IMG/VR virus record: IMGVR_UViG_3300034283_002562
Source: an uncultured virus (IMG/VR IMGVR_UViG_3300034283_002562)
Taxonomy: Duplodnaviria; Heunggongvirae; Uroviricota; Caudoviricetes
Direction: 5' to 3' (one strand)
Length of the DNA stretch: 20,000 nt
In this document: positions 2,841 to 19,075 of the stretch, piece by piece
Numbering within the stretch: the stretch's first letter is position 1
Layout: each line of letters begins with the position of its first letter
Translations under genes and position numbers: made by a program
The notes under the pieces: model-generated
What the model was told of the DNA's origin: nothing
Database searches by the model: none
What the model saw: only the letters and a program-made list of their open reading frames with translations

Positions 2841-2892
2841 TTTATTTCATCAGGATCTGCTTTTTACGGTTTCCTATCCACTAGAAGAACTC

Positions 2893-3573
2893 TTAAAGTT
2901 TGTGTTTGCAATTATCAAAGTGATATCGTTTCATATTTCCAATTCCACCTATTATATCACAATGAGGACAGCATACTTTAACTTGTGGTCCGCTTTTTAT
3001 ATCTTTGTTCCATGGAGTTTGCAATCCTGTTTTACCTTTATTCCATGGGGTTTGTCCAGTTTTTCCTTTCTTAATAGCAGACATTTTAGCTCTTTCTGCT
3101 GCTGTCCATATTTTTTTAGGTTTATTAGATCTTTGTTCTTTCAATATTGGCATTACTCTACCCAATCTCCAATTGTCAGGAATTGCAGTGTCAATATCAA
3201 TAGATCTATTTTCATGTCCGTTTGTTATCCAGCGTCTTCCATACATCGAGTTGTTGTGACCAGTTCTAGTTTTGGCAGCCAGCTGCATCTTTCGACGTAA
3301 CCAACCATATAACTTATTATTTCTATTTTGATTATCACTGGTCACAGTCATCATAGTAGCAGCATATACTAGTGAGTAATTATCATATATTTTAACCAAC
3401 AATAGATGTGCTACATAATGTTCTTCTGGCGTTAATTTAACCACATTGTCCGGGTCATCTTTCCCGCCCATACATCGTGGAATAATATGATGTTTCTCAA
3501 AGTATTCATTATCGAGAAACGTTCTATTTTTTCCACGATGTATTAATTTTTCATATATAATTTTATAGTTCAT
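2893..3573 (-). CDS. Free-standing HNH homing endonuclease (Mob-like) with PWNKG repeats and C-terminal Zn ribbon
   Basis: EKHHIIPRCMGGKDDPDNVVKLTPEEHYVAHLLL; WITNG; QTPWNK twice; CPHC..MKRYHFDNCK. Confidence 0.93.
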   Translation of the reverse strand: MNYKIIYEKLIHRGKNRTFLDNEYFEKHHIIPRCMGGKDDPDNVVKLTPEEHYVAHLLLVKIYDNYSLVYAATMMTVTSDNQNRNNKLYGWLRRKMQLAAKTRTGHNNSMYGRRWITNGHENRSIDIDTAIPDNWRLGRVMPILKEQRSNKPKKIWTAAERAKMSAIKKGKTGQTPWNKGKTGLQTPWNKDIKSGPQVKVCCPHCDIIGGIGNMKRYHFDNCKHKL

Positions 3574-4576: not shown

Positions 4577-4695
4577 CAGGTTAGCATTTTAAGTTTTCCC
4601 AATTAAACTACATTAGTGACCAACCCTAACGCTGGGATTCGAACCCAGAACTTTCTTTTACAATAAGATTTAATAAAATTGCTGAAACTAACCTA
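4577..4695 (-). ncRNA. Scaffold RNA copy 3 with circularly permuted tRNA insert (YrlA-like topology)
   Basis: TAGGTTAGTTTCAGCAA...AAAATGCTAACCTG. Insert order: TCTT-ATTGTAA-AAGA, T-arm CTGGG-TTCGAAT-CCCAG, loop-closed acceptor CGTTAG/CTAATG, TA, D-arm GTTT-AATTGGGA-AAAC. Confidence 0.8.
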
Positions 4696-4734
4696 TTGGT
4701 CTTATTCGCTGGTGACTAGCCTCGAATATTCTGT

Positions 4735-4844: not shown

Positions 4845-4853
4845 TATTTATTT

Positions 4854-5890: not shown

Positions 5891-5965
5891 AGTTTTCCTA
5901 TATGTTACTGAGTATTTATTATTTGAGGTTATCAATCATCTGGGTAGTTACCAAAACTAATTAGG

Positions 5966-6057: not shown

Positions 6058-6542
6058 TATAATAAACCACACTACGGAAGGATTCGAACCTTCGGTTGCC
6101 GTCGCACTCAACACGCCAGTGTACCTCGATACGAATCGAACGTATCTTACCACCATTTATAGTGTAGTTTATTATATAATCATATAGTAAAGTGCATTAA
6201 ACGAGGGAACACGAATGCTACACATCCTCCTGTCTCCGGCCCTCAAGCTTAACATCCTTCTGGCCAGTGATGTTAAGGTGACTGATTAATACACTTTAAT
6301 ATAAAATTATATAGAAACACATGCTGAAGGACGAACGGCGTATTTCCATCGAAGAACTATATCTTTCTCATCGCCGTATAGCTTCCCGCACGATATAGTC
6401 TGAGTTGCGCTTCAGGATGTGTTTTTATATAATCATATAATAAAGCATACTACACGGAATTGAACCGTCTTCATTCAAGCCCGGAGCTCAAACTGTGATC
6501 CACACAACGCTGATCAGACGCTAATATGCTTTATTATATGAT
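6058..6542 (-). repeat. Four tandem long-stem cassettes with variable inserts (6058-6176, 6182-6303, 6307-6432, 6432-6542)
   Basis: Each is closed by a 16-19 bp AT-rich inverted repeat (e.g. TTATATAAAAACACAT/ATGTGTTTCTATATAA). Mismatches in the first two read as G-U on the minus strand. Confidence 0.8.
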
Positions 6543-6543
6543 T

Positions 6544-6619
6544 TGGTAGGACCGCCGAGACTCGAACTCGAATTCCCGGATTAAAAGTCCGGTGTTCTAA
6601 CCAATTGAACTACGATCCC
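6544..6619 (-). tRNA. tRNA-Lys(TTT)
   Basis: CCGGA-CTTTTAA-TCCGG, cloverleaf, CCA. Confidence 0.97.
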
Positions 6620-6662
6620 AAATTTTCTTGCCTTCTTTTTCTGTTTTTGTCTTTCGTTTCAT
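6597..6662 (-). CDS. Putative Lys-rich leader peptide running into tRNA-Lys
   Basis: AGGA RBS, MKRKTKTEKEGKKIWDRSSIG*; the TAG stop lies inside the tRNA D-loop. Confidence 0.5.
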   Translation of the reverse strand: MKRKTKTEKEGKKIWDRSSIG

Positions 6663-6685
6663 AATTATTTCCTATGTTGTTATAG

Positions 6686-6748
6686 CAGGATACGTTTTTA
6701 CTAGTTGAATTAAAAGTTCAGTGTAAATTGTTTGCTGAATGTATCCTA
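6686..6748 (-). ncRNA. Scaffold RNA copy 5 with Lys(UUU) anticodon stem-loop
   Basis: TAGGATACATTCAGCAA...AAAAACGTATCCTG; TGAA-CTTTTAA-TTCA. Confidence 0.8.
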
Positions 6749-6766
6749 AAACTGTTTATGCTGTTA

Positions 6767-6794
6767 ATTATACAGCATTTTTATACGTTGTCAA
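6767..6794 (-). promoter_or_regulatory. sigma70-type promoter
   Basis: TTGACA-16nt-TATAAT upstream of scaffold copy 5. Confidence 0.8.
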
Positions 6795-7107
6795 TTATTT
6801 TATCTGGATATTGTGCATCACGGCGTTCAATTTCAGCATATGGACTGTAGCCAGGCTGTAATTCCGTGATATTAGTAAATCCATTGGTTTCTGTAATCAA
6901 ACTATCATTAGAATCGATAGAACCACGATATTTACTACCATAACTACCTTCTAATTTACCAGTACTCGGATTAAGATCACCCCATTTAGTGTGATTACCA
7001 CCGATAACTTCAATATAGTAGGTTTTACCAGTTCGGTATGAATAAACAACATGTCTACCGGTATCTTCAGTTTTTGTAAAAAATTTCTTTCGGGTTTCTT
7101 CGTCCAT
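6781..7107 (-). CDS. Hypothetical phage protein
   Basis: MDEETRKKFFTKTEDTGRH..WGDLNPSTGKLEGSYGSKYRGSI; AAGGA RBS. Confidence 0.8.
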   Translation of the reverse strand: MDEETRKKFFTKTEDTGRHVVYSYRTGKTYYIEVIGGNHTKWGDLNPSTGKLEGSYGSKYRGSIDSNDSLITETNGFTNITELQPGYSPYAEIERRDAQYPDKIIDNV

Positions 7108-7125
7108 AATAGTTTCCTTTGTGTT

Positions 7126-7160
7126 TGGTGCTTTAGAAATGAATCGAACCTCTGTCTGCA
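7126..7160 (-). pseudogene. 3' remnant of a tRNA (T-loop, acceptor strand, ACCA)
   Basis: AGAC-AGAGG-TTCGATT-CATTT-CTAAAGC-A-CCA. Confidence 0.65.
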
Positions 7161-7201
7161 GTAAGTATAAATACAATAATATATTTATTAAAGGTTCGAT
7201 T
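7142..7201 (+). promoter_or_regulatory. Late promoter inside an RBS-sequestering inverted repeat
   Basis: AATCGAACCT (7142-7151) / AGGTTCGATT (7192-7201), with TATAAATA at 7166-7173. Confidence 0.72.
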
Positions 7202-7202
7202 T

Positions 7203-7913
7203 ATGCCAACTAAAATTTGCCCAAAATGTCAAAACACCCATATAAAACCTGGAATATTTTGTTCTCGATCCTGTGCCAATTCAAGAGGACCAAGATCAGA
7301 CGATTTTAAACAAAAAGTGTCAGATAAACTTAAAGGTACTCATTATCAAACAGAAGATGCTATAAGAAAACGAATTACATCTAGAGGATATACAGTAAGA
7401 TTTGACAAACCTAATCTAGTGTGTAAAGTATGCAACACTGATACCCTATCAAAATATAAGAAAACATGTTCTAAAGAATGTTATGACCTATTAAATAAAT
7501 CAAAATCACAACAACATCCAAATTGTGGCGGACAAAAACATACCCATCGTTCTAAAATAGTAAATATTAAAAATGAAGTATTTACTGCTGAAAGTTCTTA
7601 CGAAGTAAGATTATCTACTATTTTAAACGAATTAGATATTTATTGGGTAAGACCGTCATTTATGTGGTATGTTGATGACAAACTCCAAAAACGTCGATAT
7701 TATCCTGATTTCTTTTTACCACAGTTTAATGTGTATCTTGATCCGAAAAACGAATACCTCATTAAATCCGATATACAAAAAATTATAAAAGTCTCCGATC
7801 AAAATAAATTAAACATTGTAGTAATTGGTGATCGACACATCAATGCTGCATCAATTCATCATTTAATTTATAATATGTTTTCAGATACTACCGGAGTTCT
7901 CCTCTACTATTAA
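7203..7913 (+). CDS. Putative homing endonuclease: Cys-rich Zn-finger repeats plus PD-(D/E)xK nuclease domain
   Basis: CPKC..FCSRSC, CKVC..TCSKEC; ESSYE..RRYYPDFFLP..VYLDPKN. Confidence 0.82.
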   Translation: MPTKICPKCQNTHIKPGIFCSRSCANSRGPRSDDFKQKVSDKLKGTHYQTEDAIRKRITSRGYTVRFDKPNLVCKVCNTDTLSKYKKTCSKECYDLLNKSKSQQHPNCGGQKHTHRSKIVNIKNEVFTAESSYEVRLSTILNELDIYWVRPSFMWYVDDKLQKRRYYPDFFLPQFNVYLDPKNEYLIKSDIQKIIKVSDQNKLNIVVIGDRHINAASIHHLIYNMFSDTTGVLLYY

Positions 7914-7927
7914 CTAAATCTGTAAAC

Positions 7928-8004
7928 TGGTAGGACCATTCAGATTCGAACCGAAGACATCCTGCGTGTAAGGCAGGTGCTCTAACCAACTGAGCTATGG
8001 TCCT
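7928..8004 (-). tRNA. tRNA-Val(TAC)
   Basis: CCTGC-CTTACAC-GCAGG, cloverleaf, CCA. Confidence 0.97.
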
Positions 8005-8035
8005 GTTTATAGTTACAGTTAGTAGGGCTTAAATT

Positions 8036-8058
8036 GCCTACCATTAGACGACTAAAGC
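8036..8058 (-). pseudogene. 5' remnant of a tRNA (acceptor strand and D-arm)
   Basis: GCTTTAG-TC-GTCT-AATGGT-AGGC; GCTTTAG is complementary to CTAAAGC of the 7126 remnant. Confidence 0.5.
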
Positions 8059-8059
8059 T

Positions 8060-8237
8060 ATAATTGTTGCTTTCTTATTCCCGGCTATCACAGAGGTTGC
8101 CACTTGTACTTCATGGTTCTCAACTTGCAGGTTCTGGCGGAACAGAATTCTCGTATTGCCAACGTGCTTTTGGTTCAAAGCATACCACCCGTGTGTATCA
8201 CCACACTTCTTATCCTCTGGGTCAGAGTATCCGTTGA
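8060..8237 (-). ncRNA. Candidate structured ncRNA
   Basis: GC-richer intergenic stretch; CAGAGG/CCTCTG long-range pair, GTGTG-GTGA-TACAC and TTCTG-TTCCGC-CAGAA hairpins. Confidence 0.45.
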
Positions 8238-8702: not shown

Positions 8703-9233
8703 TTATTTGAACATTTGCAAGATATTTTTCATAGCATCTGTATTACTATCCCATGTTTGTCCGCCAAATCGTCCGTATTCTATACGGTTATCAGCAGACC
8801 ATTTATTATAATAATCGGACAATTCACCATTGCATTCCAATAGTGTATCACCGTAATTGATTATCATTACATTAGGATTCATGCAATCACGAATTGAATA
8901 AACCTTCTCAAACGCTTCTTTAATACCCATGCCATGTTGTATTAGTACTAGAATAGCAGTTGCTGTACTTCTACTAACACCAGCATGACAATGAATTAAA
9001 ACTTTATCAGTATCAGTAAATGTTTTACTGAATTCTAAAATATTTTCAATATTTTGTAAAGTAGGATGTTGATATCCTTCTAATGGTACTTCAATATCAT
9101 GAAATCTTTCTACGTGATGTTCCACATCACAATCAAATACTTTGGTATTTGGATCAACAATGCTAATGACTTTAGTATGGGTTGGTGCCCATAAACTTGC
9201 TTCGTATAATCCTGATATAGTTATATCTAACAT
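8703..9233 (-). CDS. Cys-based protein tyrosine / dual-specificity phosphatase
   Basis: VLIHCHAGVSRSTA (CX5R), FHDI acid loop, R..MNPN. Confidence 0.92.
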   Translation of the reverse strand: MLDITISGLYEASLWAPTHTKVISIVDPNTKVFDCDVEHHVERFHDIEVPLEGYQHPTLQNIENILEFSKTFTDTDKVLIHCHAGVSRSTATAILVLIQHGMGIKEAFEKVYSIRDCMNPNVMIINYGDTLLECNGELSDYYNKWSADNRIEYGRFGGQTWDSNTDAMKNILQMFK

Positions 9234-12544: not shown

Positions 12545-13076
12545 ATAATACTAAAGGAGAACTAACGTTCTCCTGTTCTTCGCTATCGCTCATCACATTT
12601 TTTATAATTTCTATCTTACCTATTCAACTAGATTACGATTTACTTTTGCCCCCATAAAGGGAGCAAAAAAATAATTTCAACTGAGTTGACTTCATTAGTA
12701 GAGTTACACTGGTTACAGAGGCGGTTGGCCGATACCTCGAAGTGCGTTTTTGTTTCTGTTGTCCAACGGTGGCATTAGGAAAATACTCTACCATATTCCT
12801 AATACGTCCAGGAATTACCTGGTCATTTAGCCTTTTTATCTTTTGTTTAAACATTCGAAATTGGTTGTACGTAGGCGTATCCAATCATCATTTGCATCAC
12901 AATGTGCAAGTAGTCGAATGAGTCGCTGCTTCTACTCAGCTGTTTCCCTCCATGCGAAGAACATTCCATTTCCTGGGGCACCTGTCAAACCACCGGTGCG
13001 AGTGTATCAGAAGTGTATAGCCTGAAAAAGTGCCTGTGAAATCATATTTATCGTTGCCTAAATTTATTTGCCTAAT
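12545..13076 (-). other. Approximately 500-nt structured intergenic element (candidate large ncRNA or origin)
   Basis: GC-richer, many hairpins, no convincing ORF; TAGACA-17-TATAAT promoter at 13111-13083. Confidence 0.45.
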
Positions 13077-13688: not shown

Positions 13689-13733
13689 TAAAAAAACCCA
13701 AGCCAACTTGATGGATCAAGCCGATACTTGGGT
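13689..13733 (-). terminator. Terminator-like hairpin in the 5' leader of 13120-13662
   Basis: ACCCAAG..CTTGAT-CC-ATCAAG..CTTGGGT-TTTTTT, downstream of TTGACA-17-TATAAT (13824-13796). Confidence 0.55.
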
Positions 13734-13833
13734 AAAAAAAGGAGTTTTTTAAATTGTTAAAAAGTCTTGTAATCTATAACTGTTTCATAATTCTTATTAT
13801 ATCAAATTTTATATTGTATGTCAATTACTATTT

Positions 13834-14453: not shown

Positions 14454-14528
14454 TGGTGCACCCGATGGGATTCGAACCCATTGTCGCAAGTTTTAGAGGC
14501 TTGTGCTATACCTAGTAGCTTCGGGTGC
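14454..14528 (-). tRNA. Amber suppressor tRNA (anticodon CTA)
   Basis: GCACCCG/CGGGTGC-A-CCA; D-arm GCTA/TAGC; CAAGC-CTCTAAA-ACTTG; T-arm ATGGG-TTCGAAT-CCCAT. Confidence 0.85.
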
Positions 14529-18466: not shown

Positions 18467-18492
18467 AATACCCTTTTGAATGTGAATGTGTA

Positions 18493-18520
18493 AAAAGATA
18501 GTAGGGATTTCTCCCTACTA
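18493..18520 (-). terminator. Terminator after tmRNA
   Basis: TAGTAGGGA-GAAA-TCCCTACTA-TCTTTTT. Confidence 0.75.
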
Positions 18521-18868
18521 GGTATTTTTGGTTATAAGGTATTTCCTACCTCAGAATTCGCTGGTTATTAAGCAGCGATAGCATCAAAGATGCCATCTAC
18601 AGTGTAGAATTCAAATTTAGAATCGTTTGCGATTACTATGTTTATGCTGATTAGGTCAGTCATCTCTCCTGTTGCCTTCTCTAACTCTTCGCCCAATCGA
18701 ATCCAATACAGCCCCATCATAAAAACATAGATACTCCCCTTTTAAGGGGCAGGGAGTTTATGGCTATGGCCCCACTCTGATACCAACCTATGTTCTTATG
18801 GTGGAGCTGGCGGGTTTCGAACCCGCGTCTTGAACGCTTCCTCGTTGAAGGAATTACAACAATTCTGT
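18521..18868 (-). ncRNA. ssrA: Permuted two-piece tmRNA; tag ANDSKFEFYTVDGIFDAIAA
   Basis: The acceptor piece ..GACGCGGGTTCGAAACCCGCCAGCTCCACCA (ends 18799) precedes the coding piece GGGGCTGTATTGGATTCGA (starts 18715). G3-U70 pair; tag ORF 18630-18568 ending AA-TAATAA; TTGACA-16-TATAAT at 19072-19045. Outer boundaries approximate. Confidence 0.95.
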
Positions 18869-19075
18869 ATATCTATACCGCACACCCTTGCGACTTCAGC
18901 CTGTTAAGGTAGAGCTACTAAATAGAACTCTATGACTTCTATATGTTAGCATAGATAAATTAAATATCTAACTATGGTTCAATAATGGCGTACCACTCCT
19001 GATCATTTATACTATGTACCAGATTTAAGTTAGACTATTTGCTTATTATAGCATTATATTTATATTTGTCAAGAA

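Follow-up and report, generated by a model that had tools for sequence, protein, structure and literature searches.

The stretch analyzed here, referred to below as the window, comprises 20,000 nucleotides (nt) of DNA from an uncultured virus of the class Caudoviricetes (IMG/VR record IMGVR_UViG_3300034283_002562). It is a phage tRNA region in which ARAGORN identifies 15 tRNA genes and a transfer-messenger RNA (tmRNA) gene, all on the minus strand, with small open reading frames (ORFs) interspersed. The subject of this analysis is a 251-nt unit that consists of a consensus promoter, a copy of the short form of a recurrent scaffold RNA, a 66-nt A-rich leader and the gene for tRNA-Lys with the anticodon UUU, in this order (Table 1). 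A predicted ORF of 21 codons opens in the leader and contains no stop codon ahead of the tRNA gene, so that its TAG lies inside the tRNA, at the edge between the D-loop and the D-stem. Comparison with other phages indicates that small reading frames tied specifically to tRNA-Lys form a conserved module that may link translation to tRNA processing.

Table 1. Features of the tRNA-Lys(UUU) unit, in window coordinates
Feature	Position	Strand	Details
sigma-70-type promoter, TTGACA-16 nt-TATAAT	6767..6794	-	-35 at 6794-6789, -10 at 6772-6767; 12/12 matches
Short-form scaffold RNA copy	6687..6747	-	AGGATAC 6747-6741 ... GTATCCT 6693-6687
Possible 4-bp hairpin TGAA[CTTTTAA]TTCA inside scaffold	6706..6720	-	from the sequence; absent from the minimum-energy fold
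Shine-Dalgarno (SD) sequence, start codon and first four codons (MKRK)	6651..6676	-	AGGA 6673-6670, 7 nt, ATG 6662-6660
Predicted 21-codon ORF MKRKTKTEKEGKKIWDRSSIG	6597..6662	-	TAG 6599-6597 = tRNA nt 21-23
tRNA-Lys (anticodon UUU)	6544..6619	-	ARAGORN; Rfam RF00005, 67.8 bits

For tRNA-Lys(UUU), these 251 nt make up a phage transcription unit that is self-contained. Its parts are as an earlier note, made from the sequence alone, had listed them, namely, a promoter of its own, the scaffold copy with the loop letters CTTTTAA, and an AGGA-ATG start of a peptide that has six Lys residues within 13 codons and terminates in the tRNA. The promoter is the only perfect site among the 10 promoter-like sites between positions 5900 and 8100, an interval in which shuffled sequences yield 9.9 +/- 3.4 such sites, and its -35 element overlaps the final codons of an upstream ORF of 108 amino acids (aa). 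Comparable units of promoter and scaffold lie near 4845 and 8720. Between 5900 and 8100 there is one terminator-like site, on the plus strand (6758-6778); none is present on the minus strand between the ORF and tRNA-Lys. Metatranscriptome contigs from three runs of one sample, along with one probable DNA run, cover the unit; one of these contigs spans 6482-8100, one ends at 6617 and one ends at 6626 beside adapter-like letters, but, coming from one sample, they are uninformative with respect to RNA ends, strand and level.

To place the ORF, 20 tRNA arrays were taken from divergent contigs that carry the scaffold RNA, and the region upstream of each tRNA-Lys gene was examined. Two conserved units are found there, and both open with the same SD sequence and ATG-AAR-CG, encoding MKR. 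In 21 arrays, where tRNA-Lys accounts for 31 of about 676 tRNAs, all 14 short ORFs with an SD sequence and an ATGAARCG start are located just upstream of a tRNA-Lys gene. The first unit (class A) is a gene of about 43 codons whose products form 90 protein clusters, all unnamed and mostly 43 aa in length, with the consensus MKRKxIVxERNCFVRLALFRKAGxHRKSNKALRKAQNQ, which includes 11 invariant columns and a variable end. The column entropies for codon positions 1, 2 and 3 are 0.45, 0.37 and 1.04 bits, respectively; because variation at the third positions is two to three times that at the first and second, class A is a real protein gene. Relatives of this protein are encoded in 179 viral contigs. 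Searches of Pfam, NCBIfam and PHROGs yielded no meaningful name, a profile search of the PDB gave 0 matches, and in the protein atlas, the matching viral clusters are without names, apart from a DUF7230 label on 26% of the members of one cluster (score 0.88).

The layout of class A was determined for the best 80 loci, in 74 of which the ORF was located by script. At 66 of these 74 loci, the ORF runs without a stop into tRNA-Lys(UUU) and terminates inside the tRNA, at an offset from its nucleotide 1 of +7 (U8-A9-R10; 38 loci), +18 (15), +27 (4), +23 (3), +13 (2), +20 (2), +5 (1) or +10 (1). Of the eight other loci, four have an end resembling a tRNA that escaped calling and two are without any tRNA; in the last two, the ORF stops 79 nt ahead of tRNA-Lys(CUU) and 14 nt ahead of tRNA-Cys, respectively. 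The tRNA located upstream of the class A gene varies, with at least 11 kinds represented. Nine bacterial loci with homologs were fetched, from Burkholderiales (including Thiomonas) and from Pseudomonadales; the homologs end at stop codons of their own, no tRNA is present, and no terminator was seen inside the frame at these nine loci.

The second unit (class B) is a mini-ORF of 6-8 codons, MKR-x(1-4)-K-x, with its TAG at the base of a long hairpin, GUGUC...GGCAC, that is followed by a second hairpin and then by tRNA-Lys. We fetched 44 such loci, 40 of them unique, with 33 preceding tRNA-Lys(CUU) and 7 preceding tRNA-Lys(UUU); the loci (L098, L101-L103, L108, L110, L115 and L197-L314) are in jumbo-phage contigs. 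When loci were defined by the hairpin and fetched regardless of the ORF, TAG together with an in-frame ATG was present in 9 of 9, giving ORFs of 6, 7 or 8 codons. The 3' strand of the first hairpin is complementary to the last three or four bases of the leader and the first bases of the tRNA. Duplexes of this strand with its own junction have a mean energy of -10.0 kcal/mol compared to -7.26 +/- 0.37 kcal/mol for permuted partners (0 of 5000 permutations as low). The pair across the RNase P site is A:U in 14, U:A in 17 and G:C in one of 33 unique leaders, with one exception, although this covariation represents few independent events because the class B sequences are related to each other.

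For RNA without constraint, minimum-energy folding predicts the acceptor stem in 29 of the 32 unique leader-plus-tRNA RNAs. When the ORF and the 10 nt past its stop were forced to be single-stranded, as a mimic of a terminating ribosome, the junction paired with the hairpin strand in 29 of 32 RNAs and the acceptor stem remained in one. RNAalifold applied to the MAFFT alignment of class B recovered only the base of the first hairpin; because indels blur this alignment, the inner pairs are missed, and we therefore relied on duplex calculation and constrained folding of individual sequences. Taken as models, the folds together with the covariation suggest ribosome-dependent masking of the tRNA 5' end and RNase P site in class B.

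The ORF in the window shares with class A the SD sequence and an MK[RK]K start directly before tRNA-Lys(UUU) as well as a stop that is supplied by the tRNA. The core ERNxFVxLALFRKAGxHRKSNKALRKA is absent from the window peptide (MKRKTKTEKEGKKIW...). The signature of class B is lacking as well: the ORF has 21 codons rather than 6-8, there is no TAGTGTC...GGCAC hairpin between 6597 and 6690, and a reading of the sequence reveals no hairpin strand complementary to the junction of leader and tRNA. Because the protein core and the switch hairpin are both absent, we read the window copy as a relic; the stump shares its start, its partner tRNA and its stop-less layout with class A. The reading we favor, to which we give about an even chance of being right, is that the window ORF is what remains of the 43-aa gene after shrinkage and does not itself sense lysine.

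The homology on which this reading depends is apparent at the start of the ORF. A start profile built from 93 unique tRNA-Lys-linked starts of both classes has its best match in the window, on either strand, at the SD sequence and start codon of this ORF (nhmmer E-value 0.018, 10.4 bits); the next-best match in the window has an E-value of 0.81. That second match is located in the region 2850-2950 (minus strand), where an extended -10-like sequence, TGTGATATAAT, is followed by a 13-codon ORF, MKRYHFDNCKHKL, and a scaffold-like 3' arm (GATCCTGAT) lies 9 nt ahead of tRNA-Arg(ACG). With a DNA profile of class A, the two best matches in the window both fall in the upstream ORF (E-values 1.5 and 4.5): profile positions 11-36, the top match, correspond to the 5' end of the ORF, and positions 134-164 correspond to its 3' end together with the beginning of the tRNA, with the middle of the profile unmatched. 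Judging from these sequence comparisons, the link between the upstream ORF and tRNA-Lys is inherited, and the start module is homologous to the tRNA-Lys-linked starts of other phages.

Under the relic scenario, the ribosome-binding site and the MKRK start would descend from a start module that is sited only before tRNA-Lys in many jumbo-phage genomes, and in the lineage of the window's phage, the middle of the gene with the conserved core would have been lost, leaving the 21-codon stop-less stump. Cleavage by RNase P at the 5' end of the tRNA would then leave the upstream RNA without a stop codon, and ribosomes that initiate on the stump would either reach the end of this RNA and need rescue or enter the unprocessed tRNA. 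The placement of the ORF is in keeping with this scenario, in that a leader of 66 nt is unusual after a scaffold: of the 77 scaffold copies followed by a tRNA, 48 are no more than 15 nt away from that tRNA.

The close relatives of the window say little about how such a relic would have formed. A synonymous-degenerate pattern of the upstream ORF matched six viral contigs, in which the leader is identical except for one substitution just past the scaffold in two (L084 and L085), and the flanks are about 100% identical as well; the same six near-identical contigs, and no others, were recovered with the upstream 108-aa neighbor as bait. Because these contigs are near-identical across the region, they are uninformative with respect to selection or decay. 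The nearest record, a 14.8-kb piece, shows no difference from the window in the 501 bases that were compared, and among GenBank phages, matches were of tRNA length only, with no relative found. In L084 and L085, a different tRNA-Lys(UUU) allele substitutes exactly from the first base of the tRNA, whereby the ORF becomes MKRKTKTEKEGKKIWWV, ending in ...IWWV, with its stop at U8-A9-G10 of the tRNA; the phase and the stop of the stump in these two contigs are those of the majority of the 43-aa genes. A profile of the 43-aa family gave no match in five related records.

Several observations weigh against the derivation of the stump from the 43-aa gene. The homology amounts to a 26-nt match with an E-value of 0.018 in A-rich sequence; the second segment matched by the class A profile overlaps the tRNA, which would be similar in any case; the near-identity of the six contigs gives no reading of decay or selection; and no partly deleted intermediates of the 43-aa gene were found. 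Furthermore, the good SD sequence, the right spacing and the intact start could mean that the stump is still used.

Use of the stump is what the earlier note had proposed. According to that model, ribosomes translating the Lys-rich stump would enter the nascent tRNA and delay its folding or its cleavage by RNase P, whereas pausing at Lys codons under scarcity of Lys-tRNA would free the tRNA, amounting to feedback on the maturation of tRNA-Lys. We consider this unlikely for the window copy. The good SD sequence, the 7-nt spacing, the ATG and the lack of a stop ahead of the tRNA are all compatible with the model, as is the inherited, Lys-specific association of the ORF with tRNA-Lys. The conservation of MKR-type ORFs upstream of phage tRNA-Lys genes, named in the earlier note as a check, is borne out at the family level (14 of 14 starts, 179 contigs and 44 mini-ORF loci). 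Additional support comes from the mini-ORF relatives, through the covariation of hairpin strand and junction, the strength of the own-junction duplexes and the modeled effect of covering the ORF and the 10 nt past its stop, by which 29 of 32 RNAs give up the free acceptor stem and have the RNase P site masked instead. However, the window copy has neither the switch hairpin nor a partner for the tRNA 5' end, its Lys-richness is compositional (see below), the stretch of the ORF that overlaps the tRNA is not the same in the two tRNA-Lys alleles, and the 43-aa peptide is under protein-level selection that a pure codon sensor would not need. In addition, RNase P cleavage is generally fast, so that ribosomes may seldom meet the tRNA.

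A broader version of the proposal holds that tRNA-Lys genes carry dedicated ribosome-sensing leaders, of which the window stump is a minimal working one, so that maturation of the tRNA is controlled by translation; we regard this, too, as improbable. Here, a ribosome at the stop codon of the mini-ORF would melt the hairpin strand, and the freed strand would pair across the RNase P site, so that the phage tRNA-Lys would be made only when decoding of Lys (and Arg) codons falters, for example, after the action of a host anticodon nuclease. In the 43-aa form of this scheme, RNase P would yield a stop-less message for a protein resembling rescue factors. Translation-controlled maturation is plausible in kind for the mini-ORF form, given the covariation and the folding models, and is unsupported for the window copy: the mechanism put forward for the window fits class B much better.

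An A-rich and T-poor spacer would read as Lys, Glu and Arg codons without stops, and the ORF might owe its AGGA and ATG to chance. The composition of the leader is indeed extreme, with 25 A and no T among the 36 nt after the ATG. When these 36 nt were shuffled 20,000 times with mononucleotide composition kept, 33% of the shuffles gave at least six Lys residues in codons 2-13, and frame +1 of the same segment contains five Lys codons; the Lys-richness is not beyond chance because A-richness alone yields it, and, in the absence of T after the ATG, no stop is possible and an open frame is therefore expected. Folding of the 141-nt leader is at the level of shuffled sequences (z-score 0.01; 93 of 200 shuffles equally stable), and ATG frames that enter tRNAs are common in the arrays, many of them without an SD sequence. 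What argues against a purely accidental ORF is its start: the best profile match in the 40 kb searched lands on the SD sequence and start codon, which position alone would produce in about 0.2% of cases; over its first 12 nt, the ORF agrees exactly with ORFs that precede tRNA-Lys in distant phages (L105 and L106); and all SD-bearing MKR short ORFs in the arrays precede tRNA-Lys. On this evidence, we judge that the ORF is quite unlikely to be a product of chance. The lysine theme of the earlier note holds for the inherited, Lys-specific start module and fails for the Lys-richness and the CTTTTAA loop, which are coincidences of A-rich sequence and a generic scaffold, respectively.

The generic character of the scaffold became apparent from its distribution. 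It consists of an outer helix, AGGAUAC/GUAUCCU, with NNN-CAGCAA after the 5' arm and a variable inner part, and matches to the scaffold-like motif are found in the window at eight places (3649, 4040, 4694, 4797, 6747, 8679, 9279 and 13785), the copy in the unit being the fifth from the low-coordinate end. The motif, CAGTTNTAGGATACNNNCAGCAA, was found in 72 stretches of viral contigs, with one to seven copies per record and a single strand orientation in all 42 viral records examined, compared to one match for a reversed control pattern. The outer helix covaries, with both variable pairs intact in 75 of 80 copies and ten dinucleotide types represented. In most phages, the scaffold starts directly after the CCA of the preceding tRNA, and the tRNAs that follow its copies are of 16 kinds. 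Within phage tRNA arrays, the scaffold is a generic spacer RNA.

The proposed mimicry of the Lys anticodon within this scaffold does not survive the comparison. The letters CTTTTAA are indeed those of the anticodon loop of tRNA-Lys; they occur, however, in five distinct scaffold sequences, which precede tRNA-Glu, tRNA-Pro, tRNA-Leu, tRNA-His and tRNA-Lys, so that the loop is not tied to tRNA-Lys. The minimum-energy fold of the leader retains the outer scaffold helix and lacks the 4-bp hairpin that would present the loop. The more general idea of anticodon mimicry was rejected as well: when the scaffolds that precede tRNA-Phe and a tRNA-like element elsewhere in the window were compared by eye, none of their inner loops matched in register the anticodon lying downstream.

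In other phages, long forms of the scaffold contain a T-arm, a capped acceptor-like stem and a D-arm inside the closing helix; those of L012, L017, L028 and L043 enclose a permuted-looking tRNA-like module. The long forms match the YrlA model (Rfam RF02553) over its full length with 29-37 bits, below the gathering score of 69, and the short-form scaffold of the window does not match this model. The resemblance to YrlA and the bacterial Y RNAs, as far as these are described in the parts of the source consulted (PMC4201824), lies in the T-arm, the acceptor-like stem and the D-arm in the closing helix of the long forms, whereas the outer helix of the scaffold is unlike that of YrlA and the short forms in the window have no tRNA-like module. 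No Ro60/TROVE gene was found in the five phage records searched. Two further elements of the window are of note in this connection. At 4620-4700 (minus strand), a tRNA-like element that ARAGORN does not call reads AGGTTAGTTTCAGCAA ... T-arm CTGGGTTCGAATCCCAG ... GGTTGGTC, and elements resembling it occupy long spacers in other phages (L018, L052 and L055). At 13690-13830 (minus strand), a promoter close to consensus is combined with a degenerate copy of the scaffold and a terminator-like hairpin that has a T run; together, they may represent a stand-alone small RNA gene.

The remaining explanation, which we find very unlikely for the stump, is that, like its 43-aa relatives, it is a purposely stop-less message: RNase P would generate a non-stop mRNA, and its product, or just the stalling of ribosomes on it, would be coupled to trans-translation by the phage tmRNA, following the logic of arfA and brfA. 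The stop-less layout is kept at 66 of 74 loci even though the codons just ahead of the tRNA vary, a tmRNA gene is present in the phage, and the basic tail ...HRKSNKALRKA is, as we assume, similar to the tails of rescue factors. However, the stump cannot share the function of the protein because the conserved core is absent. For the family itself, the ArfA model (Pfam PF03889) matched none of 42 members at an E-value of 10 or lower, nor the window peptide at this threshold, nor the four complete phage genomes searched; the PDB contains no match for the 43-aa proteins; and the nine bacterial homologs have their own stops, no tRNA and no in-frame terminator that could be seen.

Several known systems resemble parts of this arrangement, and we treat them as functional analogies rather than as memberships because the defining feature failed in each family tested. 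ArfA and BrfA are ribosome-rescue factors whose own messages are stop-less, being truncated by RNase III or at a terminator. The likeness lies in a small basic ORF whose usable message is stop-less, here located beside tRNAs and a tmRNA; the difference is that truncation here would be effected by RNase P at the tRNA, and the window copy is without the family core. Leader-peptide attenuators, such as trpL, hisL and thrL, employ a short upstream ORF that contains codons for the cognate amino acid. The mini-ORF relatives would resemble them, according to the folding models, in having two mutually exclusive helices chosen by the position of the ribosome. In contrast to attenuators, the output would be a masked 5' end and RNase P site of a tRNA, no terminator is involved and the regulated gene is the tRNA itself; moreover, the mini-ORF contains only two Lys codons and the window copy is without alternative helices. 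Terminator and antiterminator hairpins of the attenuator type were not found between the window ORF and the tRNA, and the leader has no stable fold.

In mitochondria, according to the parts of the source consulted, excision of tRNAs sets the 3' end of the upstream message, which is sometimes left stop-less (PMC9674279). This punctuation is a general mode of organellar processing, whereas the phage case is a gene-specific pairing with tRNA-Lys. A reason why tRNA-Lys in particular might own a control element or a partner gene is offered by counter-defense: phage tRNA-Lys has been described as a countermeasure against nucleases that cleave tRNA-Lys (PMC10264068, PMC11464382, PMC11555353), and the portions of these reports consulted make no mention of upstream ORFs or leaders. 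Likewise, the literature search, within the text available to it, returned no description of ORFs that enter phage tRNA-Lys or of translation-controlled tRNA processing, and the two tRNA-Lys-specific ORF modules, the 43-aa gene and the mini-ORF, appear to be undescribed. The ribosome would control tRNA processing directly if the models hold for either the hairpin switch or the stop-less design. Taken alone, the window yields a more modest result, a real unit in which the lysine theme is in part inherited and in part coincidence.

The surroundings of the unit include additional structured and rearranged elements. Directly 3' of tRNA-Lys, at 6431-6543 (minus strand), a stem of about 22 bp encloses three hairpins, one of them T-arm-like; the element folds with -40.8 kcal/mol (z-score -4.67; 0 of 200 shuffles fold as well), and a related copy is present near 6169-6300 (repeat family D15). 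A truncated remnant of a tRNA 3' end is located at 7125-7155 (minus strand), upstream of the 108-aa ORF; in its place, the related contig L069 has an intact-looking tRNA 3' end with T-arm, acceptor strand and CCA. The only sizeable plus-strand ORF nearby, at 7203-7913, encodes 236 aa with a weak match to DUF7487; an insertion at 7125-7155/7203-7913 may have broken the tRNA.

Elsewhere in the window, the phage tmRNA is encoded at 18477-18891 (minus strand), scoring 134 bits with the permuted model and 116 bits with the beta-proteobacterial model; its predicted tag is ANDSKFEFYTVDGIFDAIAA. A tRNA with the anticodon CUA, of the amber suppressor type and labeled Pyl by ARAGORN, is located at 14454-14528 (minus strand). 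Reading TAG as Gln, which this tRNA prompted us to try, gave no meaningful gain in the window ORFs. At 12849-13004 (minus strand), there is a match to the Polynucleobacter-1 RNA family (RF01718; 64.6 bits against a threshold of 37), and an ORF of 176 aa at 8703-9233 (minus strand), situated among the tRNA genes, contains a dual-specificity phosphatase domain (PF00782, E-value 9.7e-12).

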